Of a stretch of 10,563 bases of DNA, positions 1-10,563 are shown piece by piece (the first letter of the stretch is position 1; the number at the start of each line of letters is the position of its first letter). The notes beneath the pieces are model-generated. The model had not been told where the DNA came from. It did not search any database and was given only the letters and a program-made list of their open reading frames with translations. Made by a program: the position numbers and the translations under genes. This DNA comes from Candidatus Micrarchaeia archaeon (GTDB lineage Archaea; Micrarchaeota; Micrarchaeia; Anstonellales; J096). Location: the NCBI GenBank assembly GCA_041500405.1, contig JBGQMB010000029.1:1-10563 (forward strand). The letters are read 5' to 3'.

Positions 1-188
1 AAAAGGGCATCCGCGCCCTCAGAATAAGCATCCTTCTTCTTTTCAATACCTTTCACTTCAGCCATAGTTTCACCCACATCCTTCCATCGTGGCAGCCACT
101 CGGCACCTACAGCACCCACGCTACCGACGTTGGCGGCGATCATCGTGTATATGACCGCGTTGCGCAGATGGTTTTTGATGGTTGCCAT
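1..188 (-). CDS. Hypothetical protein, 5' part only (runs off the window edge), with a possible N-terminal signal or anchor
   Basis: Manual translation from ATG at 188 is open to base 1: MATIKNHLRNAVIYTMIAANVGSVGAVGAEWLPRWKDVGETMAEVKGIEKKKDAYSEGADAL. Basic N-terminus followed by an apolar stretch. Minus-strand TTTTTAATA (220-212) lies about 24 nt upstream. Not in the ORF track because it is truncated. Confidence 0.6.
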   Translation of the reverse strand, partial: MATIKNHLRNAVIYTMIAANVGSVGAVGAEWLPRWKDVGETMAEVKGIEKKKDAYSEGADAL

Positions 189-249
189 ATATAAAGATTA
201 TATATAGAAGGTATTAAAAATGTGTTTGTTAGGGGCTATATCTGTATCT

Positions 250-265
250 AAAAAAGCTTTTAAAA
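250..265 (+). promoter_or_regulatory. Archaeal BRE/TATA promoter for the RFC gene (probably leaderless)
   Basis: Purine-rich AAAAAAG followed by TTTTAAAA (258-265), ending 21 nt before ATG 287. No SD motif before the ATG. Confidence 0.55.
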
Positions 266-286
266 TCCCCTACCCATATTTCCACC

Positions 287-1252
287 ATGCACGGCGAATT
301 CCTTCCATGGACGGAGAAGTATAGGCCAAAGACCATAAAGGATGTCATAGGCCAGTCCCATGTCAGGGATGCGCTTGCCTCGCTTGTGAAAAAGAGGGCG
401 CTCCCGCACCTGCTGTTCGCAGGCCCGCCCGGCGTCGGAAAGACGACCATGGCGATGGCCATGGCGCACGAGCTTTACGGGGAGGACATCAGGGGCAACT
501 TCCTTGAGTTAAATGCCAGCGACGAAAGGGGCATAGACATAGTCAGGGGAAAGATAAAGGAGTTCGCGCGCAGCATAGGCAACAACAAGATAGGGTTCAA
601 GATAATATTCCTGGACGAGGCGGATGCGCTGACAAGCGATGCGCAGCAGGCGCTCAGAAGGACGATGGAAATTTACTCCGACGTGACGAGGTTCATGCTA
701 AGCTGCAATTACTCAAGCAAGATAATAGAGCCGATACAGAGCAGGTGCGCGGTCTTCCGCTTCCTCCAGCTGAAGAAGGAGGACGTCTTTTCAATGGTGA
801 AAAGGGTGGAGGAAGGCGAGGGAATCGAGGTCACTGAAGACGGAAAGGATGCCATAGCCTACGTCTCAGAAGGCGACCTGAGAAAGGCGATAAATGTCAT
901 GCAGGGCGCTTCGTTCCATGCCAAGAAGATAGACGCGGACCTTGTTTTCAGCATCGGCAACACCGCCCAGCCTGAAGCCGTGCGCAAGGCCATGAAGCTT
1001 GCGCTTGGCGGAAAATTCCAGGAGGCCAGAAAAGAGGTGGAGCACATGATGGTGAAATACGGCCTCAGCGGGGAGGATATCGTGATACAGTTCTACAAGG
1101 AGCTTCCCTCGCTTGAAATAGATGAAAAGCTGAAAGTCGTGCTGATAGACAGGATAGGCGAATACAACTTCAGGATTGCGGAGGGCGCGAACGAAAGGAT
1201 ACAGATAGACGCGCTTCTTGCCCAGTTCCTGCTCGCAGGAAAAGGAAATTGA
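287..1252 (+). CDS. rfcS: Replication factor C small subunit (clamp loader, AAA+)
   Basis: PWTEKYRP (RFC box II), Walker A GPPGVGKT, LELNASDERG, Walker B IFLDEAD, IQSRC motif, GDLRKAIN. 321 aa, no intein. Confidence 0.97.
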   Translation: MHGEFLPWTEKYRPKTIKDVIGQSHVRDALASLVKKRALPHLLFAGPPGVGKTTMAMAMAHELYGEDIRGNFLELNASDERGIDIVRGKIKEFARSIGNNKIGFKIIFLDEADALTSDAQQALRRTMEIYSDVTRFMLSCNYSSKIIEPIQSRCAVFRFLQLKKEDVFSMVKRVEEGEGIEVTEDGKDAIAYVSEGDLRKAINVMQGASFHAKKIDADLVFSIGNTAQPEAVRKAMKLALGGKFQEARKEVEHMMVKYGLSGEDIVIQFYKELPSLEIDEKLKVVLIDRIGEYNFRIAEGANERIQIDALLAQFLLAGKGN

Positions 1253-1299
1253 TTAAAAACCTTTCCCTCATTTTCCCTCAGAGCAATAAGGTGAATTTC

Positions 1300-1542
1300 A
1301 TGGATGAGGAAGCAGGAATGGGAAGCGAGGAAGCGGCGCCGAGAAACTATGGCGCGAAGCCGGTTGACGTAGGCCAGGAGCTTGAGGTGACGATAGAAAG
1401 CAAGGGCAAGAGCGGCGACGGGGTCGCAAAGGTGAGCGGCTATGTCATTTTCGTCAAGGGCGAGACAGAAATAGGCCAGAAGTACATGATAAAGATCGTG
1501 AGGATGGGAAGGAGTTTCGCGACTGGCGAGCTTGTCCAATAA
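1300..1542 (+). CDS. Single TRAM-domain RNA-binding protein (archaeal RNA chaperone type)
   Basis: KPVDVGQELEVTIESKGKSGDGVAKVSGYVIFV...KIVRMGRSFATGELV matches the TRAM pattern. Start moved to ATG 1300 because SD-like AGGTGA is at 1289-1294. TATA-like TTAAAAA at 1253-1259. Confidence 0.9.
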   Translation: MDEEAGMGSEEAAPRNYGAKPVDVGQELEVTIESKGKSGDGVAKVSGYVIFVKGETEIGQKYMIKIVRMGRSFATGELVQ

Positions 1543-1547
1543 TATTT

Positions 1548-1940
1548 TTACTCCTTTTTGTTCCGTTTCAGCAGCTTGGGCAGGTGCGCCCTGGCTGTCT
1601 TGTTTTCTACTTCAATGGCGCAGACGCCCATATTCTCAACTTTTCCGATATATTCCCCGTTCGGAAGGTCCAGCTTCATCGGTTTTCCGGACACAAGCAT
1701 TTCCGCATCCTGCCTTTTCAGGTCAACAAAATTGCGCAAGGCAAGGTGCCCGAACATCGTCGCGAAATAGTGGCTTGTCGCTCCGTCGAACGCCGGATAC
1801 CCCCTGCTTCCCTTTATCGGGGACGACATGAGCTGCTTTGAGAATACCCTGACCATATCGTTCTTGTCTTCGTAGACAACATTGTCAGGCCTTATGCCGA
1901 ACCTCTGGTCCATGTGCCTCTTGAATTCTCCGGCGTCCAT
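1548..1940 (-). CDS. Stand-alone PUA-like RNA-binding protein resembling the C-terminal region of RsmF/NOP2-family m5C methyltransferases
   Basis: RFGI near the N-terminus and FATMFGHLALRNFVDLKRQDAEMLVSG resemble the 'FG..A.KN.V.L...A..L..G' pattern I recall for these domains. Start ATG 1940 chosen from minus-strand TTTTAAT at 1968-1962. 130 aa. Confidence 0.55.
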   Translation of the reverse strand: MDAGEFKRHMDQRFGIRPDNVVYEDKNDMVRVFSKQLMSSPIKGSRGYPAFDGATSHYFATMFGHLALRNFVDLKRQDAEMLVSGKPMKLDLPNGEYIGKVENMGVCAIEVENKTARAHLPKLLKRNKKE

Positions 1941-1990
1941 GATTCCATATTGGCAGAAAGCATTAAAACGCATATGGCGGAAATTGGAGC
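1941..1990. promoter_or_regulatory. 50-bp divergent promoter region with one central TATA-like element
   Basis: ATTAAAA at 1962-1968 lies 21-22 nt from both ATG 1991 (+) and ATG 1940 (-). Confidence 0.45.
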
Positions 1991-3076
1991 ATGGAGCTTT
2001 CCGGCAACGCGCTTTTCGAGGCGATAAAGGAGGAGAAAAGAAAGGGAAAGTTCATGGTTGCGCAGATAGCGCCTGCATTGCGCGTGACGATAGGCGAGGA
2101 GTTCGGGCTCCCTGACGGGGCTGAGGTTACGGGAAAGCTGGTCTCATTGCTGAAAAGCCTCGGGTTTGACGAGGTAATCGACACCTCGTTCGGCGCCGAC
2201 GCCATAGTGTTCATAGAGGCAAAGGCGTTCGAGGAGATGCTGAACAAAAACGACCCAAGCGCGTTTCCGCTGTTCAACTCCTGCTGCACAGGCTGGAGGG
2301 AATACGCCGAAAAAAGGCATCCCGAGCTGATTCCGCGCATATCCAGGATAGTCACGCCCATGATGATGGCGGGCGCGGTGGCGAAGATGTTCTTCTCCAA
2401 GACGTGGAGCCGCAACCCACAGGACATCGTCATCGTCGGCATAATGCCGTGCACCCTGAAAAAGCACGAGACCCAGATGGAAATGCAGAACGGGCTGAGA
2501 TACACGGACTATGTTGTCACAACAAGGGAGCTTGGCGAATGGGCGCGCTCGGAAAAATTGGAGCTGTCAAAAATGAAGGACGGTTTCATAACGGACGTCA
2601 GCATGCCTTCGAAGGGCGGCGTCATCTTCGGCGCGACCGGGGGCATAACAGAGGCGTTCATCACGACCCTTGCCGCAAACCTCAATGAAAAAAAGGAGAC
2701 GCTTGAGCTTAGGAAAAACGAGAACCTGCGCGAATGCGTGTTCAAGGTGGGGAAACACAAAATCAGCACCGCGGTGGTTTTCGGCTTCCCTGCGCTGGAG
2801 AAGCTGCTTGAAAAAATCAAGAACGGCGCAAAGTACCACTTTGTGGAAGTCATGATGTGCGCGTACGGCTGCGTGGGCGGCCCCGGACAGCCCGCGCCCA
2901 AGAACGGCATGGAAACGATACTGAAAAGGGCGGAGGCGATGAGGAAGGCTGCCGACAAAATGCCTGAAAAGACGCCCGCGTCCTTGAAGTCAATAAAGGC
3001 GCTGGACCCGCTGTTCTTCGCAAGCCTGCAGGGGAAAGGCTGCTTCGTGTTTTTCGAAAACGTGAAGAAGGAATAG
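1991..3076 (+). CDS. hydA: Minimal monomeric [FeFe]-hydrogenase (H-cluster domain only, group A-like)
   Basis: QIAPALRV, DTSFGAD, P1 FNSCCTGW, P2 IMPCTLKKHE, IFGATGG, P3 EVMMCAYGCVGGPGQP. All five H-cluster-associated Cys are present (C98, C99, C154, C290, C294). No CxxCxxCxxxC ferredoxin motif. 361 aa. Confidence 0.95.
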   Translation: MELSGNALFEAIKEEKRKGKFMVAQIAPALRVTIGEEFGLPDGAEVTGKLVSLLKSLGFDEVIDTSFGADAIVFIEAKAFEEMLNKNDPSAFPLFNSCCTGWREYAEKRHPELIPRISRIVTPMMMAGAVAKMFFSKTWSRNPQDIVIVGIMPCTLKKHETQMEMQNGLRYTDYVVTTRELGEWARSEKLELSKMKDGFITDVSMPSKGGVIFGATGGITEAFITTLAANLNEKKETLELRKNENLRECVFKVGKHKISTAVVFGFPALEKLLEKIKNGAKYHFVEVMMCAYGCVGGPGQPAPKNGMETILKRAEAMRKAADKMPEKTPASLKSIKALDPLFFASLQGKGCFVFFENVKKE

Positions 3077-3077
3077 C

Positions 3078-3587
3078 TTACTCAACCGCCCTTATTATGG
3101 AATATGCCAGCGTTCCGCCCAATAGCGCGGTAAGAAACTGGATCATTCCAAACGCGGCAAGCATCTGCGCAGGAAGGCCAAGGAAATAAACAAGCGCAAA
3201 TGACGACACGATCAGCAGCGCGGCCTTTGACGCCGCGCCTGCCAGCAACGCCTTCCAATAATTGTTATTTATTTTCCTGACAACAAACATCAGCGTCGCG
3301 TTGCCGAGCCATATGAACGGCAGCATCGCAGCAACCGCGCCTGAAGGCTGCCCCAGCACAACGCCGATAAGCATCGCTATTATGGAGGGAATGAACGCAG
3401 GCGCATACGCTTTTGTCCCGCTTATCCTCAATGCGGAAAGGACAAGCATTGCGTTGACTATTGTTCCAAGTATTGCCTGCTGGGTTATCAGCATCGGCGC
3501 AAGGAAAGCCACGGAGCAAAATGCGAAAAGCTCGAATTCCTCCTTTCCAACGAACGGAAGCCTGAAAACGCTTATGTCCTGCCCCAT
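3078..3587 (-). CDS. ECF-transporter S-component-like membrane protein (about 5-6 TM helices), substrate unknown
   Basis: 169 aa and almost entirely hydrophobic. The motifs QQAILGTIVNAML, PSIIAMLIG, MLPFIWLGN and QFLTALLGG fit the S-component pattern I recognise. Start placed at ATG 3587 because the longer ORF overlaps the tRNA-like fragment. Minus-strand TATTTAAA at 3617-3610. Confidence 0.7.
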   Translation of the reverse strand: MGQDISVFRLPFVGKEEFELFAFCSVAFLAPMLITQQAILGTIVNAMLVLSALRISGTKAYAPAFIPSIIAMLIGVVLGQPSGAVAAMLPFIWLGNATLMFVVRKINNNYWKALLAGAASKAALLIVSSFALVYFLGLPAQMLAAFGMIQFLTALLGGTLAYSIIRAVE

Positions 3588-3609
3588 AGTTTTGGTTTTG
3601 CCCGTTTTC

Positions 3610-3617
3610 TTTAAATA
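3610..3617. promoter_or_regulatory. TATA box probably shared by the S-component gene (-) and the tRNA locus (+)
   Basis: TTTAAATA is 22 nt from ATG 3587 on the minus strand and 23 nt from G3641 on the plus strand. Confidence 0.5.
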
Positions 3618-3640
3618 ACTGACGCCGCCCAATATATAGA

Positions 3641-3709
3641 GGGCCCGTAGCTCAGTTTGGCCTTGGAAAAAAGCGGCCAAATCGCTCCGGTCCAAGATGC
3701 AGTCAGTAG
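3641..3709 (+). pseudogene. tRNA 5'-fragment or decayed tandem copy directly upstream of tRNA-Arg
   Basis: GGGCCCGTAGCTCAGTTTGG (3641-3660) is a canonical archaeal tRNA 5' end up to G18-G19. Its first 15 nt match 3710-3724 at 14 positions. No T-arm (TTCRA) occurs before 3710. Confidence 0.5.
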
Positions 3710-3784
3710 GGGCCCGTAGCTTAGCCCGGATAAAGTGCCCGGCTTCGGACCGGGAGATCGAGGGTTCGAATCCCTCCGGGCCCT
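3710..3784 (+). tRNA. tRNA-Arg (anticodon TCG), no intron, CCA not encoded
   Basis: Acceptor GGGCCCG/CGGGCCC. D-stem GCTT/AAGT with loop AGCCCGGATA carrying the A20 Arg determinant. Anticodon stem CCCGG/CCGGG with loop CT-TCG-GA. T-arm GAGGG-TTCGAAT-CCCTC. Confidence 0.95.
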
Positions 3785-3825
3785 AACAACATGCGTTAAA
3801 AAATCTATTGCCAGAGTGTTTGTCC

Positions 3826-4731
3826 ATGGATGATTTCGAGCTCGAGGACCTCAAGGAAGCAGGCAAGCTTACCGCGAGGCTCAAGAAGGATGCGGAGCAG
3901 CTGACAATAGTCGGCGAAAGGCTCTTTGACATCGCCGAAACGCTCGAGCAGCTGATGGAAAAGGAGGGCGCAGCCCCTGCGTTTCCCGTGAACATCTCAA
4001 TCAATGAATTGGCGGCGCACTACACGCCGTCTGCCGACGACAAGGCGGAAATTCCGGAGGACGGCCTTGTCAAGGTCGATTTTGGATTGATCAAGGGAAA
4101 CGCGATAACTGATACCTCTGTCACCGTTGACCTTGGAAACAAATACAAGCCATTGATGAAGGCGTCAAGGGATGCGCTGGACAACGCCATAAAGGCAGTA
4201 AAGCCCGGCGTCCCTGTGAATGACATAAGCAAGATAATCTACGAGACAGTAAGGGAGAACGGATGCAAGCCCATCTCCAACCTTGCAGGCCACAAGATAG
4301 AGTGGATGAACCTGCACGCCGGGATAGAGGTCCCGAACATTCCTGCCAACGAGATGTACGAGTTCAAGGAGGGCGACGTTTTCGCAATAGAGCCGTTCGT
4401 GACAACAAAGGAGGGCGCGGGATACATAAAGGAGACGGACCATGTCGAGATTTACAGCCTGTTCATGCCAGGAAACATACGCATGAGGCAGAGCAGGAAA
4501 ATGCTTGAATATATCATAGAGCACTATAAGACAATGCCGTTCTGCGAAAGGTGGCTCAACAAAGAGTTCAAGTCCCGGCTTTTGCTCAACTCGGGGCTGA
4601 AGGAGATGCTAAAGGCAAGGGTGCTGGTCGCGTATCCGGTGCTTGCAGAGGCAAACGGACAGCCGATTGCGCAGTTTGAGGAAACAGTCGTGGTCACCAA
4701 GGAAGGGTGCATCCCGATAACAAAGCATTAA
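3826..4731 (+). CDS. map: Type II methionine aminopeptidase
   Basis: AFPVNISINELAAHYTP, VKVDFG...ITDTS, NLAGHKI, LHAG, FAIEPF, AQFEETV give the D, D, H, E, E metal ligands. The type II helical insertion (MPFCERWL) is present. ATG 3826 lies 22 nt after TTAAAAAA (3796-3803). Confidence 0.96.
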   Translation: MDDFELEDLKEAGKLTARLKKDAEQLTIVGERLFDIAETLEQLMEKEGAAPAFPVNISINELAAHYTPSADDKAEIPEDGLVKVDFGLIKGNAITDTSVTVDLGNKYKPLMKASRDALDNAIKAVKPGVPVNDISKIIYETVRENGCKPISNLAGHKIEWMNLHAGIEVPNIPANEMYEFKEGDVFAIEPFVTTKEGAGYIKETDHVEIYSLFMPGNIRMRQSRKMLEYIIEHYKTMPFCERWLNKEFKSRLLLNSGLKEMLKARVLVAYPVLAEANGQPIAQFEETVVVTKEGCIPITKH

Positions 4732-4764
4732 AAACTCTTTTCTATACTTTTTAACACGGTTCAC

Positions 4765-6729
4765 ATGGGGCAAAACTCGGACAACGGCCGCGAAAGCCAG
4801 AGGCGCATGCGCAGGCAGGCCAGCCCCGGCCAGATAAATGCCTCCGAAAAGAGGAAAAAGTTCCACGAAATATTCAGGCGCGGAAAGGAAAAGTTCGATG
4901 CAAACGACTTCAGGGGCGCCGTGCGCGAAATGAACAGGTCGCTCAAGCTGAAGCCAAGGCATTCCGAGGCATATTATCTCAGGAGCCTTGCAAGGCAGAG
5001 GCTCAGGGATGACAAAGGCTCGTCCCGCGACATGGAAAAGTATGTCCTGCTCACAAACAGGAAGACCATATCAATGTCAATGAGGATAGGCTCGCGCGAA
5101 ATCGCCATGGGAAACATGGAAGCCGGGCTGAAAAGCATGGGCCACGCGATATCCAGGAAGTGCGACGGCATTGCGGCGGGGTTCATCAACAGGGGCCACA
5201 TGATGGAGCTGGCCGGCGACAGCCGCAGCGCAATACGCCAGTTCACGCAGGCGGTTGAGGCAAGCCCGTGGTCAACATCGCCGTTCATGGCAAGGGGACA
5301 GGCCCATATGGCGCTCAATGAATTCGCAAACGCAAAAGAGGATTTCAGCAAGGCGCTGGAGATAAGGGAATTCGCCGAGGGGTTCATGTTCAGGGGCATC
5401 TGCCTCAACCGCATCGGCGACAACGAGAACGCGGTCCTTGACATCACAAAGGCGCTGGAGATAAACCCGAAATACGCGGAGGCGCTTTTCCACAGGGCGG
5501 TCGTGCTTGACTGGATGAAGATGCGCGACGCCGCGCTCAATGACATAAACAAGGCGCTTGGGCTGAATCCGGAGAATGCCAATTTCCTTGCCATAAAAGG
5601 CCTGATACTCAACAACCTCGGCAGGCACGAGGACGCAATATACATCCTGGACGCGCTTCCGAAACAGCCTGACGCATCATACATCATGGCAATCGCCTTT
5701 GAATCATTGGGAAGGCCCGGCGATGCCATAAGGTGCCTTGACTCCGCAATACGGATGGACGAAAACGACCATACGCTTTATCTCAAAAGGCAGGGCATTA
5801 AACGCTCAATGGGCGACATGGAGGGCGCTGGGAAGGACGGGCAAATGGCCGCGGTTCTAAAGAAGCAGAACGATTTTGACGAAAACATGCTCAAGGGGCG
5901 CACCCTGCTTGCGAACAGGATGTACGGCGCCGCGCTTGCATGCGCGTCAAAGGCCATGGAGATGAGGCCCTCCGACCCGGATGCATACGCGCTCAGGGCA
6001 AGGGCGCATTTTGCCGCAGGCGAGAATGAAGAGGCGGTCGCCGACTGCAATAAGGCCATAGAACTGGCCCCGGACGATGCGGAACTATACAACATGCGGA
6101 ACATGTATTATTTCAACATGGGGGAATACGACAACGCCCTTGGCGACATAGACAAGGCGCTGTCATTGGCGCCAAGGGACAAAGACTTCATATACGCAAG
6201 GGCGCACACCCTGATGGAGATGAGAAGGTACAAGGAGGCGATAGCCTGTTTTTCCAGGCTGATAATGCGCGACCCGGACGACGACCAGCTTTACTATGAC
6301 AGGGCGGACTGCTTCCATAGCCAGGGAAAAATCAAGGAATCCATCCAAGACTACAGGGCCGCGATAAGGCTTAATTCCCACAACCCGGTATATTATAGCG
6401 ACCTCGGCGCCGCGCTCTACATGAGGGGGAACTACATGAAAGCCATCCGCCTTTTCAGCAAGTCCATTCAGGTCGCGGAAAAGGATAAAAACATGATTGC
6501 AAAGTCCAACTCGCACACCAACATCGCGCTTTCGTTTGAGAACCTCGGCAACAACTTTGAGGCCATGCGCCATTACGGCCTTGCCATTGAAGCAGACCAG
6601 AAGAACGCGGCCGCGCTCTACAACAGGTCCATACTCAAAAAAAGGATAGGCGACAAGGAGGGCGCAACGCAGGACCTTGAAAGGGCGTGGGACATTGAAA
6701 GCGGAGAGGACATTGAGCCCCCTTTTTAA
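4765..6729 (+). CDS. Tetratricopeptide-repeat (TPR) protein, 654 aa
   Basis: More than ten ~34-aa repeats, e.g. AVLDITKALEINPKYAEALFHRA, AVADCNKAIELAPDDAELYNMR, ALGDIDKALSLAPRDKDFIYARA. No recognisable catalytic domain or signal peptide. Confidence 0.92.
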   Translation: MGQNSDNGRESQRRMRRQASPGQINASEKRKKFHEIFRRGKEKFDANDFRGAVREMNRSLKLKPRHSEAYYLRSLARQRLRDDKGSSRDMEKYVLLTNRKTISMSMRIGSREIAMGNMEAGLKSMGHAISRKCDGIAAGFINRGHMMELAGDSRSAIRQFTQAVEASPWSTSPFMARGQAHMALNEFANAKEDFSKALEIREFAEGFMFRGICLNRIGDNENAVLDITKALEINPKYAEALFHRAVVLDWMKMRDAALNDINKALGLNPENANFLAIKGLILNNLGRHEDAIYILDALPKQPDASYIMAIAFESLGRPGDAIRCLDSAIRMDENDHTLYLKRQGIKRSMGDMEGAGKDGQMAAVLKKQNDFDENMLKGRTLLANRMYGAALACASKAMEMRPSDPDAYALRARAHFAAGENEEAVADCNKAIELAPDDAELYNMRNMYYFNMGEYDNALGDIDKALSLAPRDKDFIYARAHTLMEMRRYKEAIACFSRLIMRDPDDDQLYYDRADCFHSQGKIKESIQDYRAAIRLNSHNPVYYSDLGAALYMRGNYMKAIRLFSKSIQVAEKDKNMIAKSNSHTNIALSFENLGNNFEAMRHYGLAIEADQKNAAALYNRSILKKRIGDKEGATQDLERAWDIESGEDIEPPF

Positions 6730-6753
6730 CCGTTTTGCAGCATATAATCTATG

Positions 6754-6826
6754 GGGGTAATGGGACAACCTGGTAGCCTGCGAGCTTTGGGAGCTTGTGA
6801 TCCCGGTTCAAATCCGGGTTACCCCA
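6754..6826 (+). tRNA. tRNA-Pro (anticodon TGG), no intron, CCA not encoded
   Basis: Acceptor GGGGTAA/TTACCCC plus discriminator A. D-stem GGAC/GCCT. Anticodon stem CGAGC/GCTTG with loop TT-TGG-GA. T-arm CCCGG-TTCAAAT-CCGGG. TATA-like TTTTTAA (6723-6729) overlaps the TPR stop codon. Confidence 0.93.
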
Positions 6827-6832
6827 ATGGCC

Positions 6833-6854
6833 CTTTTTCTTTGCGAAGAAAAAG
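6833..6854 (+). terminator. Hairpin and T-tract after tRNA-Pro, possible terminator
   Basis: Perfect 9-bp inverted repeat CTTTTTCTT-TGCG-AAGAAAAAG. The left arm is an oligo-T tract 7 nt after the tRNA. Confidence 0.45.
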
Positions 6855-6907
6855 CGCCAGCGGAAAAAGAAAGCATTTTGGCGCCAGCGGAAAAGAAGCT
6901 ACTTTTG
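6854..6907. repeat. Imperfect 27-bp tandem duplication
   Basis: GCGCCAGCGGAAAAAGAAAGCATTTTG (6854-6880) and GCGCCAGCGGAAAAGAAGCTACTTTTG (6881-6907). The first 14 nt are identical. Confidence 0.8.
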
Positions 6908-6978
6908 AAAAAAGCCTAGGCAAAAACCGGCGCATCCTTTTGCGAAAAGGTCAAATATCTTTCGGCTCAAATGCTGCT

Positions 6979-7458
6979 ATGCGCGAGTTTCCATTGCCTA
7001 TTGCGATTTCCGTGCTTATGCACGACAGCAACATCCTTCTTATGGAAAGGGCGAAAGGAGACTATGTCGGCCTTCTTGGCCTGCCCGGAGGAAAGGTGGA
7101 AAAGGGCGAGCATGTCTCCGACGCCGCAGTGCGCGAGATATTTGAGGAAACAGGCATAAAGTCCAAATTCATTTCTCACCTGGGCCTTGTATCGGAACAT
7201 CTTGTGGAAAACGGCGCGGTCATCAAACACTTCCTTCTAAACGTCTGCGAGCTTGCGCCGGAAAGCCACAGCTTCGTTGAAGGCCGGGAAGGCAGGCTCT
7301 TCTGGCAGCCGCTCGGCTCCCTGGGCTCAATGAAAGGCAAAATCATACCGAGCGACTTCGAGATGCTGAACAGGATGGTGCTCAGGAAAGAGAAGCACTA
7401 TTTCGAGTGCGTGCTTGAAAAGTCCGGGGAATCCTACGCGCTAAGGAGCTTTGACTAA
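6979..7458 (+). CDS. Nudix hydrolase (MutT-like), 159 aa
   Basis: Complete Nudix box GKVEKGEHVSDAAVREIFEETGI, preceded by ILLMER and LPG. The start is placed at ATG 6979 because the longer ORF reads through tRNA-Pro. Confidence 0.92.
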   Translation: MREFPLPIAISVLMHDSNILLMERAKGDYVGLLGLPGGKVEKGEHVSDAAVREIFEETGIKSKFISHLGLVSEHLVENGAVIKHFLLNVCELAPESHSFVEGREGRLFWQPLGSLGSMKGKIIPSDFEMLNRMVLRKEKHYFECVLEKSGESYALRSFD

Positions 7459-10034
7459 TCCTCGCCGTACCTTTTTACCAATTGCGCCTTGACAAACTGC
7501 GTCAATGCCAGGTATGACCCGATTATGGCTGCAAGGAAAATCCAGTATTCCATCGGCGGCGGCACAAGCCCTAACGCCCCGCTTATCGGGGAATAAGGAA
7601 GTGCCATTCCTATCAGGCAAACAAGCGTGGTTGAAAATATTATGGGCAGGCTTGCGTTGCTCTGGATGAACGGAATCTTGTTCGTCCTTATCACGTGTAT
7701 TATCAGGGTCTGGGTAAATAGGGACTCTATGAACCATCCTGTCTGGAACAGCGCGGGGTTTGTCCACGCGTTGAACACGTAAAGCATCGCGAAGAACGTG
7801 ATGAAGTCGAAGATTGAGCTTATCGGCCCTATGATGAATATGAACCTCTTTATGGGCTCAAGCGTCCATTTCCTGGGCTTTTTCAGCCACTCCGCGTCCA
7901 CGCCGTCGCTCGGTATCGTTATCTGCGAAAAGTCGTAAAGCAGGTTGTTGACCAGTATCTGTATCGGCTTCATCGGAAGGAATGGAAGGAACGCGCTTCC
8001 TCCGACAACGCTGAACATGTTTCCGAATGTCGAGCTTGCCGCCATCTTTATGTATTTTATGATATTGCCGAAAACCGCCCTTCCATATTTGACTCCGTCA
8101 GTGAGCACGGTAAGGCTCTGCTCCAGGAGGATGACTGTCGACGTTTCCTTTGCTATGTCGGTTGCGGAGTCAACCGATATCCCGACATCGGCCGCCCTAA
8201 GCCCCGGCGCGTCGTTTATCCCGTCGCCCAAGAACCCGACAACGTGGCCGTTCTTCCTCAATGCGTTGATTATCATTTCCTTGTGCTTCGGGACGAGCCT
8301 TGCGAAAATCGCGACATGCTCAACGTCCCTTCTCAGCCTTTCCTCGTCCATCTTGTCTATCTCGCTCCCCAGAAGCACGCGCTCGGCGTGTATCCCAACC
8401 TTTGAGCAGATGTTTTTTGCCACAAGCTCGCTGTCCCCTGTCAGAATCTTGATATGGACGCCGTGCTCCCTCATCTCCCTTATCGCCTCTATCGCCGAAA
8501 CCTTTGGCGGGTCCAGGAACGCGATGAACCCTGCGAGAATCAGGTTGGATTCGTCCGTTTTTTTGTACGCCCTTTTGGATTTTGGCGTTTCCTTGTATGC
8601 AACGGCGATTACCCGGAATCCCTCGTTATTTAGCCCGTCGACAATCTTACGCGCATTTTCAAGATGGCCCTTTGCGAGCTTGAACCTGCGGCCCCGCACC
8701 TCGGCAAAATCGCAGACTCCCAAAACCTCGTCAACAGCGCCCTTGCACACCAAAACCGGGTTTTTTTCGTCCTCCTGCACTATGACGCTCATCCTCCTTC
8801 TTTCAAAGTCAAACGTAACCTCGTCTATTTTTTTGAAGTTCTCCCTTGTCCTGAGCTTCGGCTCAAGCTCCGCGTGCTTTAGGATTGCATCATCCATAAC
8901 GTTCTTCATGCCTGTCTGGTAAATGCTGTTCAGATAGGCGAATTCAAGCACCCTGAAATTGTTCTCATTGCCCTCGACGTCAAGGTGCTTTTCCAGGACA
9001 ATCCTGCCTTCGGTTATTGTCCCTGTCTTGTCCGTGCACAGGATGTCCATTGCGCCGAGGTTCTGGATGGAGCTCAGCTTCTTTATGATGACCTTTTTTT
9101 CCGCCATCCTGCTTGCGCCGTTCGCAAGGTTGACGTTGACTATCATTGACATCATTTCGGGCGCAAGGCCTATCACGACTGCCAGGCCGAAAACGAATGC
9201 CTCGAACCAGTCCCCCTTTGTTATGCCGTTTATCAGGAAAACAAGCGGCGCCATGACAAGTATCAGCTTGACGTTGAACATCGCGTAGCTTCTCATGCCC
9301 TTCTCAAAGCTGCTCGGGACTTCCCTCATTATGCTTTCCGCTATCGAGCTGAAATATGTCCTGAGCCCGGTGTTGACCGCAACAACTTCGGCAATCCCGC
9401 TTTCGACGTTGCTTCCCATGAAGCAGATGTTCTCCAGCTCAAGCGCATTTGCATTTTCATTGACCTTCGGCGCGTGCTTTTCCGCAGGCAAAGACTCTCC
9501 CGTAAGCGCGGACTGGTTCACGAAAAGGTCCTTTGACCTTATTACCCTCACATCGGCGGGAACAAGGTCCCCCGCCGACAGTTGGATTATGTCGCCGGGC
9601 ACTATAAGATGCAACGGAATGTCGTGCGCCTTTCCTTCCCTGATGACAGTTGCTGTTGTTTTTACCATTTCCTTGAGCTTTTCGGCGGCATTGTCGGCCT
9701 TCAGCTCCTGCGTCAGCCTCAGGACGGAGCTCATCAGGACCATTGCCATAATCACAATGCATGCCTTCATGTCGTTTGTCGCGAATGAGAGGATGGCCAT
9801 GAAGGAAAGCAGCAGTATCAGCGGGTCCTTAAAAGTTTCAATTATCCTTGTCAAAATTCCTTTTCTCTTGCTTTCAACGGGCCTGTTTTCGCCGTATTTT
9901 CGGAGCCTTGCCCTTGCCTCGTTGTGCGTAAGGCCCTCCGCCCTTGAGCTGAGCGCCCTTAGCGCGTGCCCCTGGTCCAATGATGCTATCCTGATTAGCA
10001 TCTCGGAATGGGGCGCTTGGGAGCCTTGGTCCAT
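7455..10034 (-). CDS. mgtA: Magnesium-translocating P-type ATPase (P3B, MgtA/MgtB family)
   Basis: VNQSALTGESLP, VIGLAPEM, IQNLGAMDILCTDKTGT, FDFERRRMSV, KGA, FLDPPK, ILTGD, GDGINDAP, KMAASSTFGNMFSV, NNLLYD, FQTGWFIESL, IHVIRT are typical of MgtA. ATG 10034 lies 22 nt after minus-strand TTTTAAA (10063-10057). Overlaps the Nudix stop by 4 bp. Confidence 0.95.
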   Translation of the reverse strand: MDQGSQAPHSEMLIRIASLDQGHALRALSSRAEGLTHNEARARLRKYGENRPVESKRKGILTRIIETFKDPLILLLSFMAILSFATNDMKACIVIMAMVLMSSVLRLTQELKADNAAEKLKEMVKTTATVIREGKAHDIPLHLIVPGDIIQLSAGDLVPADVRVIRSKDLFVNQSALTGESLPAEKHAPKVNENANALELENICFMGSNVESGIAEVVAVNTGLRTYFSSIAESIMREVPSSFEKGMRSYAMFNVKLILVMAPLVFLINGITKGDWFEAFVFGLAVVIGLAPEMMSMIVNVNLANGASRMAEKKVIIKKLSSIQNLGAMDILCTDKTGTITEGRIVLEKHLDVEGNENNFRVLEFAYLNSIYQTGMKNVMDDAILKHAELEPKLRTRENFKKIDEVTFDFERRRMSVIVQEDEKNPVLVCKGAVDEVLGVCDFAEVRGRRFKLAKGHLENARKIVDGLNNEGFRVIAVAYKETPKSKRAYKKTDESNLILAGFIAFLDPPKVSAIEAIREMREHGVHIKILTGDSELVAKNICSKVGIHAERVLLGSEIDKMDEERLRRDVEHVAIFARLVPKHKEMIINALRKNGHVVGFLGDGINDAPGLRAADVGISVDSATDIAKETSTVILLEQSLTVLTDGVKYGRAVFGNIIKYIKMAASSTFGNMFSVVGGSAFLPFLPMKPIQILVNNLLYDFSQITIPSDGVDAEWLKKPRKWTLEPIKRFIFIIGPISSIFDFITFFAMLYVFNAWTNPALFQTGWFIESLFTQTLIIHVIRTNKIPFIQSNASLPIIFSTTLVCLIGMALPYSPISGALGLVPPPMEYWIFLAAIIGSYLALTQFVKAQLVKRYGED

Positions 10035-10118
10035 GTTTTTCAATTGCCGGCTTTGGTTTAAAAGGAGATACATTATCCTAGAAGATAGAATATATAATTT
10101 GTAGATTATATCTTCTTT

Positions 10119-10563
10119 TTATTTAATTTCAAATTCCTTTTTTCTAATTAAGAAATAATATAATTGTTGAATAGGTTCATTACTTTCCTCTCTGATCACA
10201 TAATTTCTTGATACAAAATCGTTATTATTTATTTTTTTGTATATTTTTTTAGCTGTATTCTGTGCGAGATCTCCCTTGCTTAATATTATAAAACACTTCG
10301 GATATAGCGTCGTTAAGTTATTTATCACTCTTGCTGTTATGTCATCTACATTATCTTCTTCTTTTACAAATATTATATTTTGTTCTATATTTTCTAAAAA
10401 TGGTAATATTCTTTCTTTCATATCTTCAAAATTATAGTTAGTTCCCATCAAAATACCTAAATATTTAGTAAAGATGCCTGTTTGGACCGCTTCTGCAATA
10501 TGTAATCCTTTATCTCCATATTTTTTATCAATCTTATTTCTAAGTCCTTTTAGTTTACCAAAT
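10119..10563 (-). CDS. Hypothetical protein, 3' part only, very AT-rich
   Basis: The 10119..10451 frame stays open to the window edge (FGKLKGLRNKIDKKYGDKGLHIAEAVQTGIFTKYLGILMGTNYNF...), so the start probably lies outside the window. No family recognised. Confidence 0.7.
   Translation of the reverse strand, partial: FGKLKGLRNKIDKKYGDKGLHIAEAVQTGIFTKYLGILMGTNYNFEDMKERILPFLENIEQNIIFVKEEDNVDDITARVINNLTTLYPKCFIILSKGDLAQNTAKKIYKKINNNDFVSRNYVIREESNEPIQQLYYFLIRKKEFEIK

Follow-up and report, generated by a model that had tools for sequence, protein, structure and literature searches.

A membrane protein with an S-component-like fold is paired with [FeFe] hydrogenases in DPANN archaea and Candidate Phyla Radiation bacteria and may serve H-cluster assembly

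A 10,563-nucleotide stretch of DNA from a Candidatus Micrarchaeia archaeon (assembly GCA_041500405.1, contig JBGQMB010000029.1, positions 1 to 10,563; hereafter the window) encodes a minimal [FeFe] hydrogenase, HydA, and, on the opposite strand, a small membrane protein of the type labelled Hyd6TM by Greening et al. (Cell 2024, PMC11216029). Comparison across genomes showed that Hyd6TM and HydA form a conserved two-gene module in DPANN archaea and in bacteria of the Candidate Phyla Radiation (CPR). Relatives of Hyd6TM in Clostridia lie among the genes for H-cluster maturation, and modelling points to the fold of the S-components of energy-coupling factor (ECF) transporters. We propose, with a probability of about 0.5, that Hyd6TM acts as a solitary S-component and provides H-cluster assembly with a small molecule, the most plausible one being an intermediate or precursor of the pathway obtained by salvage.

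The distribution of the two genes was determined in metagenome-assembled genomes (MAGs), mostly 82–97% complete. Among 61 close relatives of the window genome, 26 encoded Hyd6TM, 27 encoded HydA, 25 encoded both and 33 neither. In a sample of 301 genomes from the same phylum, which overlaps with the former, both genes were present in 58 genomes, Hyd6TM alone in 1, HydA alone in 5 and neither in 237; the corresponding numbers for 301 genomes of the CPR (Patescibacteria) phylum were 24, 0, 11 and 266. Both genes were patchy within families and genera and were gained or lost in the same genomes. For example, each occurred in 3 of the 12 genomes of genus g19, and the three genomes were identical.

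In 40 of the 58 co-occurring genomes of the window phylum and in 19 of the 24 CPR genomes, no more than 3 kb separated the two genes. These close pairs were convergent (19, as in the window), divergent (12) or co-directional (9) in the window phylum, and divergent (10) or co-directional (9) in CPR. Moreover, five genomes retained both genes at distances of 8 to 600 kb on one contig. When 44 Hyd6TM loci from named genomes were inspected, a HydA-like open reading frame (ORF) was found within the 6-kb flank in 37; six of the other seven genomes encode HydA elsewhere, and the remaining locus is cut off by the edge of its contig. Other gene families were shared by at most 8 of the 44 loci, compared with 35–37 for HydA. 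An earlier note on the window, made from its sequence alone, had suggested a linkage of the membrane gene to HydA and had cautioned that the adjacency might be chance. The linkage was borne out by the neighbourhoods and by co-occurrence in both 301-genome samples, and the caution was contradicted by the 37 of 44 neighbourhoods and the near-perfect co-occurrence. The pairing of Hyd6TM with HydA is not a chance association, and chance is excluded for practical purposes.

Hyd6TM accompanies three HydA architectures, namely forms of ~360 aa with the H-domain only, forms of ~560–650 aa with HydB/C and forms of ~260–290 aa. The short form is the usual partner in CPR (257–292 aa; PF02906 E 1e-33 to 1e-46), and at 22 loci its gene directly follows that of Hyd6TM in the same direction, at intervals of -28 to +155 bp. 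The Hyd6TM tree separated archaeal from CPR proteins as two clades and showed no split by HydA type. Therefore, the occurrence with three architectures, together with a tree that follows the organism's domain, suggested that the role of Hyd6TM concerns the H-domain itself. As a separate observation, the 257–292-aa forms of CPR (loci L010, L018–L023, L026–L037, L042 and L044, most of the HydA-like ORFs lying just downstream of position ~6440) retain the motifs GPCxxKKxE and FCxGGCxxGPG and have only a single cysteine (TSPCPT) in place of the CC of standard enzymes; the missing residue is presumably the proton-relay cysteine.

HydA of the window matched PF02906 at E 3.5e-70 as its sole Pfam domain, with no accessory iron–sulfur (F-cluster) domain within its 361 residues. 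Residues 8–339 align to solved [FeFe] hydrogenases, and the H-cluster motifs NSCCTGW, MPCTLKKHE and EVMMCAYGCVGGPGQP match those of 8a6t_A and of the solved periplasmic hydrogenase fusion chain 8ru6_B. Among 56 relatives, C98, C154, C290 and C294 were invariant and C99 nearly so. The score against the NCBIfam group A model TIGR02512 was 268.9 bits (cut-off 405.95) and covered model positions 73–374 only; HydA remains under the group A cut-offs because the N-terminal iron–sulfur domains are absent. According to Greening et al. (PMC11216029), archaeal group A1 enzymes have a mean length of 363 residues, and a Micrarchaeota group A1 enzyme produces H2 once loaded with a synthetic [2Fe]adt mimic. 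By its sequence features, HydA of the window is classed as a minimal, H-domain-only [FeFe] hydrogenase of the group A1/M1 type and is predicted to produce H2.

Hyd6TM of the window matched no Pfam or NCBIfam model, and PF12822, the S-component family, was absent even at E values up to 10. Searched against 1.84 billion proteins, a profile built from 14 relatives recovered 1088 cluster representatives at E ≤ 0.001 and 126 at E ≤ 1e-30, and the family members are nearly all 160–200 aa in length. In an alignment of 139 relatives, G41, N45, N96, K121 and Q150 were invariant, and PF12822 matched 14 of the 139 proteins at E ≤ 0.01, with a best value of 4.5e-10. The AlphaFold2 model calculated from this alignment contained six helices (predicted local distance difference test score 93.4, predicted template modelling score 0.86), and the positive-inside pattern predicted both termini to be cytoplasmic. 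In a VIA-align structural search of this model against 48,161 representative chains, the top 15 rows were all ECF S-components (RibU, an unnamed S chain [4hzu], PanT, BtuM, FolT, ThiT, BioY, NikM and CbiM), with Z values of 14.7 to 8.2 over 141–158 aligned residues, and the next row was an unrelated protein at Z 7.8. The best match was RibU, with Z 14.7 and a root-mean-square deviation of 3.2 Å over 149 residues. Foldseek against the PDB gave the S-component 5edl as its first match at E 0.029 and nothing at E ≤ 0.001, and a PDB sequence search with two family profiles returned nothing meaningful. The predicted fold and the remote sequence kinship to PF12822 through relatives support the S-component-like identity that had been proposed from the sequence. 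The likeness to ECF S-components (PF12822; RibU, ThiT, BioY, FolT and PanT) lies in the six-helix fold, the length of ~170–200 aa and the predicted cytoplasmic termini; in contrast to them, the window protein is below PF12822, the DPANN/CPR clade lacks the AxxxA-type motif, and EcfT was not found in the carrier genomes tested.

No fused or longer form of Hyd6TM, including the fusion with HydA that the earlier note had considered, was found among 8000 candidates of 357–2000 aa, which is weak evidence. A 435-aa frame in genome G546 was rejected as a fused form; it is a stop-to-stop artefact of a high-GC genome, in which the real gene encodes ~218–234 aa and is separate from that of an 896-aa HydA. 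Co-folding of HydA with Hyd6TM gave a score of 0.00 without controls, which is evidence neither way.

S-components ordinarily need EcfT and EcfA. In the window genome (916 kb, 60 contigs, 86% complete), a profile search found no EcfT (PF02361), HydE or HydG, and HydF gave only a weak generic GTPase match of 18.6 bits against a cut-off of 325. When five further DPANN/CPR carrier genomes were included, HydG, HydE above its cut-off and EcfT were detected in none of the six, two of which are complete chromosomes. Within the window itself, the Pfam scan of 11 ORFs (those of at least 60 aa) revealed no HydE, HydF, HydG, ferredoxin or ECF A/T component. These results agree with the earlier description of a window devoid of such genes and of an orphan S-component, and support the view that Hyd6TM stands without an ECF energizing module in the carrier genomes tested. 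HydG exceeded its cut-off in 6 of the 301 CPR genomes and in none of the 24 Hyd6TM carriers, where an overlap of ~0.5 would be expected under independence, too small a number to bear on the anti-correlation with hydEFG that the earlier note had raised. Five CPR genomes (G470, G608, G383, G566 and G480) have HydG over the curated cut-off (411–612 bits) and yielded no PF02906 HydA when the same set was searched; either they carry a maturase without a known client or they are incomplete. Among 130 archaeal genomes with [FeFe] hydrogenase, Greening et al. (PMC11216029) report that 5 encode all three maturases and that most lack HydEFG, and consider an alternative pathway likely. The question of how the H-cluster is acquired without HydE/F/G concerns most archaea with the enzyme and the CPR carriers tested here.

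One of the 44 named loci belongs to a Clostridia MAG, and 111 genomes of that order were searched. The family profile matched proteins in 68 of them (one copy in 66 genomes and two in 2), over the full length and at E 1e-15 to 1e-25. All 7 Clostridial proteins tested passed the PF12822 gathering score with 36.7–66.4 bits; L054, a Clostridia-MAG protein of the DPANN/CPR type, was below it. In the tree, the Clostridial proteins formed a well-supported sister clade of the DPANN/CPR proteins, and G41, V44, N45, P90, N96, K121 and Q150 were invariant across both clades. An N-terminal TRTAxLLA/AxxxA-type motif in helix 1, which in S-components we take to be the contact with EcfT, was seen by eye in the alignment of the Clostridial clade and was absent from the DPANN/CPR clade. 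EcfT was present in all 5 Clostridial genomes tested. Co-occurrence is uninformative in this order because HydA is nearly universal there (109 of 111 genomes).

The gene neighbourhoods, by contrast, are informative, and those of 69 Clostridial loci were compared. Nine loci showed the order [TM1266]–S-component–[TM1266]–hydG–hydE–(aspA)–(hydF), and one further locus showed S-component–hydF. A TM1266-family gene, named 'iron-only hydrogenase system putative regulator' by NCBI, was present at 17 loci and lay directly beside the called S-component gene in 16 of these; in L060 no S-component ORF was called. The commonest neighbour was a cysteine-desulfurase-family gene of the TIGR01977 type (35 loci, immediately downstream in 21), and a MocR-type regulator with an aminotransferase followed downstream in 12. 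hydA was found within 5 kb at none of the 69 loci. Operon-embedded members were scattered throughout the Clostridial clade, so that the family there looks like one orthologous gene with rearranged surroundings. The Clostridial context is an independent link of the family to H-cluster maturation and not to the hydrogenase structural genes, which argues against a mere structural subunit. Moreover, the position of the sister clade inside hydG–hydE–hydF operons does not agree with the earlier idea of the family as a simple alternative to hydEFG; the family is linked to maturation rather than being simply an alternative to it.

Three observations on the Clostridial loci stand on their own. At L061, L062, L068, L082, L084, L099 and L101 (also L060), a TM1266-family gene, a PF12822 S-component gene and a TIGR01977 desulfurase gene form a set away from hydG/E/F, in some cases with another gene intervening; this set is a candidate for one more accessory module of the [FeFe] hydrogenase system. 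In the maturation operon of L050, an IS110-family transposase gene (8819–10108, minus strand) lies between hydG and hydE. Genome G617 (L045/L054; 2.5 Mb, labelled as a Clostridia MAG) encodes a Hyd6TM of the DPANN/CPR clade, three HydA proteins and EcfT, and HydG was not found in it; this combination could stem from gene transfer, from mis-binning of a contig or from incompleteness of the genome.

In print, the name 'hyd6TM' was found only in Greening et al. (2024; PMC11216029), which uses it in Table S2 and in the legends of two figures, lists no domain match for the protein and does not take it up in the text. The family is the same, as Table S2 places hyd6TM next to hydA on AQRS01000037.1, JACCLG010000046.1 and JACCLF010000048.1, which are loci L038, L004 and L015, and the Hyd6TM sequences printed there show by eye the same motifs (PQxLVGxxVNA, LPS, PFIWxGN and Q-L-TA). 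The type is a membrane protein of 4–6 helices and about 160–200 aa whose gene neighbours a group A hydA, and the window protein fits this description with its six helices, 169 aa and a distance of 1 bp from hydA. The terms 'ECF' and 'Patescibacteria' do not occur in the main text of that paper (PMC11216029). Literature searches found no S-component reading of an [FeFe]-hydrogenase-linked protein, and a paper on hyd-operon context (Journal of Biological Chemistry 2024, PMC11736057) mentions no transporter, membrane protein or ECF. The association with HydA is already in print as hyd6TM, without a function in those legends and that table (PMC11216029). The present analysis adds the S-component fold, counts of co-occurrence, the presence of the family in CPR alongside HydA forms of ~260 aa, and its connection to Clostridial hydGEF operons.

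A second label concerns Bacillota look-alikes of Hyd6TM. Their Atlas cluster, in which 11% of the members carry PF12822, is named '[Fe] hydrogenase, HymD subunit family protein', and this label may name the same family as Hyd6TM, the membership being a lead only. The label is said to originate from a 2003 description of hymABCD in Eubacterium acidaminophilum. It is also listed with [FeFe] hydrogenase genes in the gene tables of two papers. The earlier note had mentioned similar membrane proteins that lie near, or are mislabelled as, iron hydrogenases in DPANN/CPR genomes, and both the cluster name and the two tables fit such a labelling, within the same limit on family membership.

The arrangement of the family resembles that of vitamin S-components. 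Rodionov et al. are said to have found in 2009 that S-component genes typically lie in the biosynthesis operon of their substrate and that auxotrophs keep them alone beside the cofactor-using enzyme. If the pattern is like that of vitamin S-components, the substrate should be something on the H-cluster pathway. We therefore propose that Hyd6TM would capture a small molecule needed for the [2Fe] part of the H-cluster and move it across the membrane; we infer transport, substrate, direction and solitary mode alike. Such a salvaged intermediate or precursor would let apo-HydA be activated without HydEFG. In the most specific form, which is possible and which we hold tentatively, the molecule would be the [2Fe] subcluster or an Fe(CO)x(CN) intermediate made by HydG/HydE and used like a vitamin: organisms with HydEFG would make the precursor, genome-reduced DPANN/CPR organisms would retain only HydA and Hyd6TM, and Hyd6TM would scavenge the organometallic precursor from hosts or neighbours. 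BtuM offers a possible precedent by analogy. It is a solitary S-component fold that handles cobalamin, an organometallic cofactor with a cyanide ligand, and works without an ECF module, and its structure (8ovv_A) matched the Hyd6TM model at Z 11.2 over 154 residues. In contrast to this structural match, there is no detectable sequence kinship between the two, no Cys or His is conserved in the Hyd6TM family, and the cysteine that presumably binds the ligand in BtuM has no counterpart there.

Several points weigh against the salvage proposal. A solitary mode is itself a difficulty because EcfT was not found in the carrier genomes tested, and to our knowledge a solitary S-component mechanism is known for a few proteins only, BioY and BtuM. 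We know of no natural free pool of [2Fe] precursors, and the window protein itself lacks a Pfam or NCBIfam assignment. The strength of the co-occurrence would be overstated by a Fisher test because the sampled genomes are related. Hyd6TM was not detected in 5 of 63 DPANN and 11 of 35 CPR genomes with HydA, which means either that it can be dispensed with in some cases or that it escaped detection. The family is also retained in Clostridia that build the H-cluster themselves and therefore is not simply a replacement for HydEFG, and the desulfurase and MocR/aminotransferase neighbours in Clostridia make an ordinary substrate of the amino-acid, sulfur or B6 type possible. Finally, Table S2 of Greening et al. 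(PMC11216029) contains two archaeal group E examples without a hyd6TM neighbour; the group E motifs printed there resemble, by eye, the short CPR HydA forms, which do have a Hyd6TM neighbour.

The main rival, which we regard as rather unlikely, takes up the idea of an ordinary substrate: instead of a dedicated organometallic intermediate, Hyd6TM would import a nutrient consumed in building the H-cluster or iron–sulfur clusters, for example tyrosine, iron, vitamin B6, cysteine or some other compound of sulfur. The desulfurase-family gene near the Clostridial homologue in 35 of 69 loci and the MocR and aminotransferase pair in 12 are consistent with this view, as is the use of tyrosine and cysteine by HydG, and an organic ligand with a carboxylate group could be well accommodated by the invariant Asn, Gln and Lys residues. 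A general nutrient importer, however, should not be confined to HydA genomes, yet 58 of 59 carriers in the window phylum and 24 of 24 in CPR have HydA. In addition, HydG is missing from the DPANN/CPR carriers tested, which leaves them with no known consumer of a HydG substrate.

Alternatively, Hyd6TM may not be a transporter but may keep HydA (or HydF) at the membrane as a dock, anchor or chaperone, which would account for its immediate proximity to hydA in most DPANN/CPR genomes. The 'HymD subunit' name of the Atlas Bacillota cluster and of genome annotations points in this direction, with family membership as a lead only, and so does the reported light/dark change in expression of hymD in Heliobacterium modesticaldum, a candidate member of the family (~40-fold, compared with 43–51-fold for the [FeFe] hydrogenase genes). 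We consider such a dock improbable, since the model has the fold of S-components, which bind substrates, and places invariant polar residues within its helices, Hyd6TM accompanies three different HydA architectures, and 18 of the 58 DPANN genomes have the two genes far apart or on other contigs; moreover, the Clostridial homologue sits with maturase genes and never within 5 kb of hydA at the 69 loci. An S-component for an unrelated vitamin that merely happens to lie beside hydA in this lineage is scarcely credible. It would be in keeping with genes that are convergent, and so not co-transcribed, and with a window protein without family assignment, but the two genes are paired again and again across two domains of life, with all three relative orientations. 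Their near-perfect co-occurrence persists even where 84–600 kb separate them, and the sister clade has a link of its own to hydG/E/F and TM1266.

Hyd6TM is a concrete and cheap-to-test candidate for the supply of the cofactor or a precursor, because no other gene found here tracks HydA in genomes without HydE/F/G and its relatives lie inside canonical maturase operons. If it carries an H-cluster precursor, it would define a new class of S-component substrate, would explain H2 metabolism in episymbionts and would offer a means of loading cells with synthetic cofactors in biohydrogen applications. If the most specific form holds, it would be the first natural transporter for a metal–carbonyl–cyanide cofactor and would turn out to be the alternative maturation pathway sought for archaeal [FeFe] hydrogenases. 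If Hyd6TM is instead an ordinary nutrient importer or a dock, its strict coupling to HydA would still need explaining.

The two genes of the window are convergent and 1 bp apart (Table 1), as the earlier note had read: the HydA stop TAG occupies 3074–3076, and tta at 3078–3080 is the minus-strand TAA of the membrane gene. The mechanical ORF of the latter extends to 3695, and the ATG at 3587 is most likely its start because homologues begin at the same Met.

Table 1. Coordinates of the hydrogenase and membrane-protein genes in the window
Feature	Position	Strand	Basis
Minimal [FeFe] hydrogenase HydA, group A1/M1 type, 361 aa	1991–3076	+	PF02906, H-cluster motifs
Single spacer base c between convergent stops	3077	.	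Direct sequence reading
Hyd6TM-type solitary S-component-fold membrane protein, 169 aa, six transmembrane helices	3078–3587	-	AlphaFold2 model and structural search

In the upstream region of the Hyd6TM gene, positions 3641–3656 carry a copy of the first ~16 bases of tRNA-Arg, GGGCCCGTAGCT(C/T)AG, ~68 bp upstream of tRNA-Arg(TCG), which itself was detected at 3709–3785 (ARAGORN; Rfam 66.8 bits). Neither ARAGORN with introns allowed nor Rfam detected a second tRNA upstream of tRNA-Arg, and a T-arm is absent after the copied 5' end. The copy may be a remnant or a duplicated tRNA 5' end, for example an old integration scar.

The other scanned ORFs of the window encode a replication factor C small subunit, a TRAM protein, a type II methionine aminopeptidase, a tetratricopeptide repeat protein, a NUDIX protein, a Mg-type P-ATPase and proteins of unknown function. 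The replication factor C and methionine aminopeptidase genes, among others, show the DNA to be archaeal, and the nearest named relatives of the window proteins are from Micrarchaeota MAGs. tRNA-Pro(TGG) at 6754–6826 overlaps the first 25 codons of the listed 235-aa NUDIX ORF (6751–7458); the true start is probably further downstream because the NUDIX domain begins at residue 83. The ATPase gene (7455–10073, minus strand) encodes an 872-aa Mg2+-translocating P-type ATPase that matched TIGR01524 with 1102.9 bits, well over the cut-off, in a genome of ~0.9 Mb. Finally, the G+C content at positions 9501–10500 is 0.40, compared with ~0.52 in the rest of the window.

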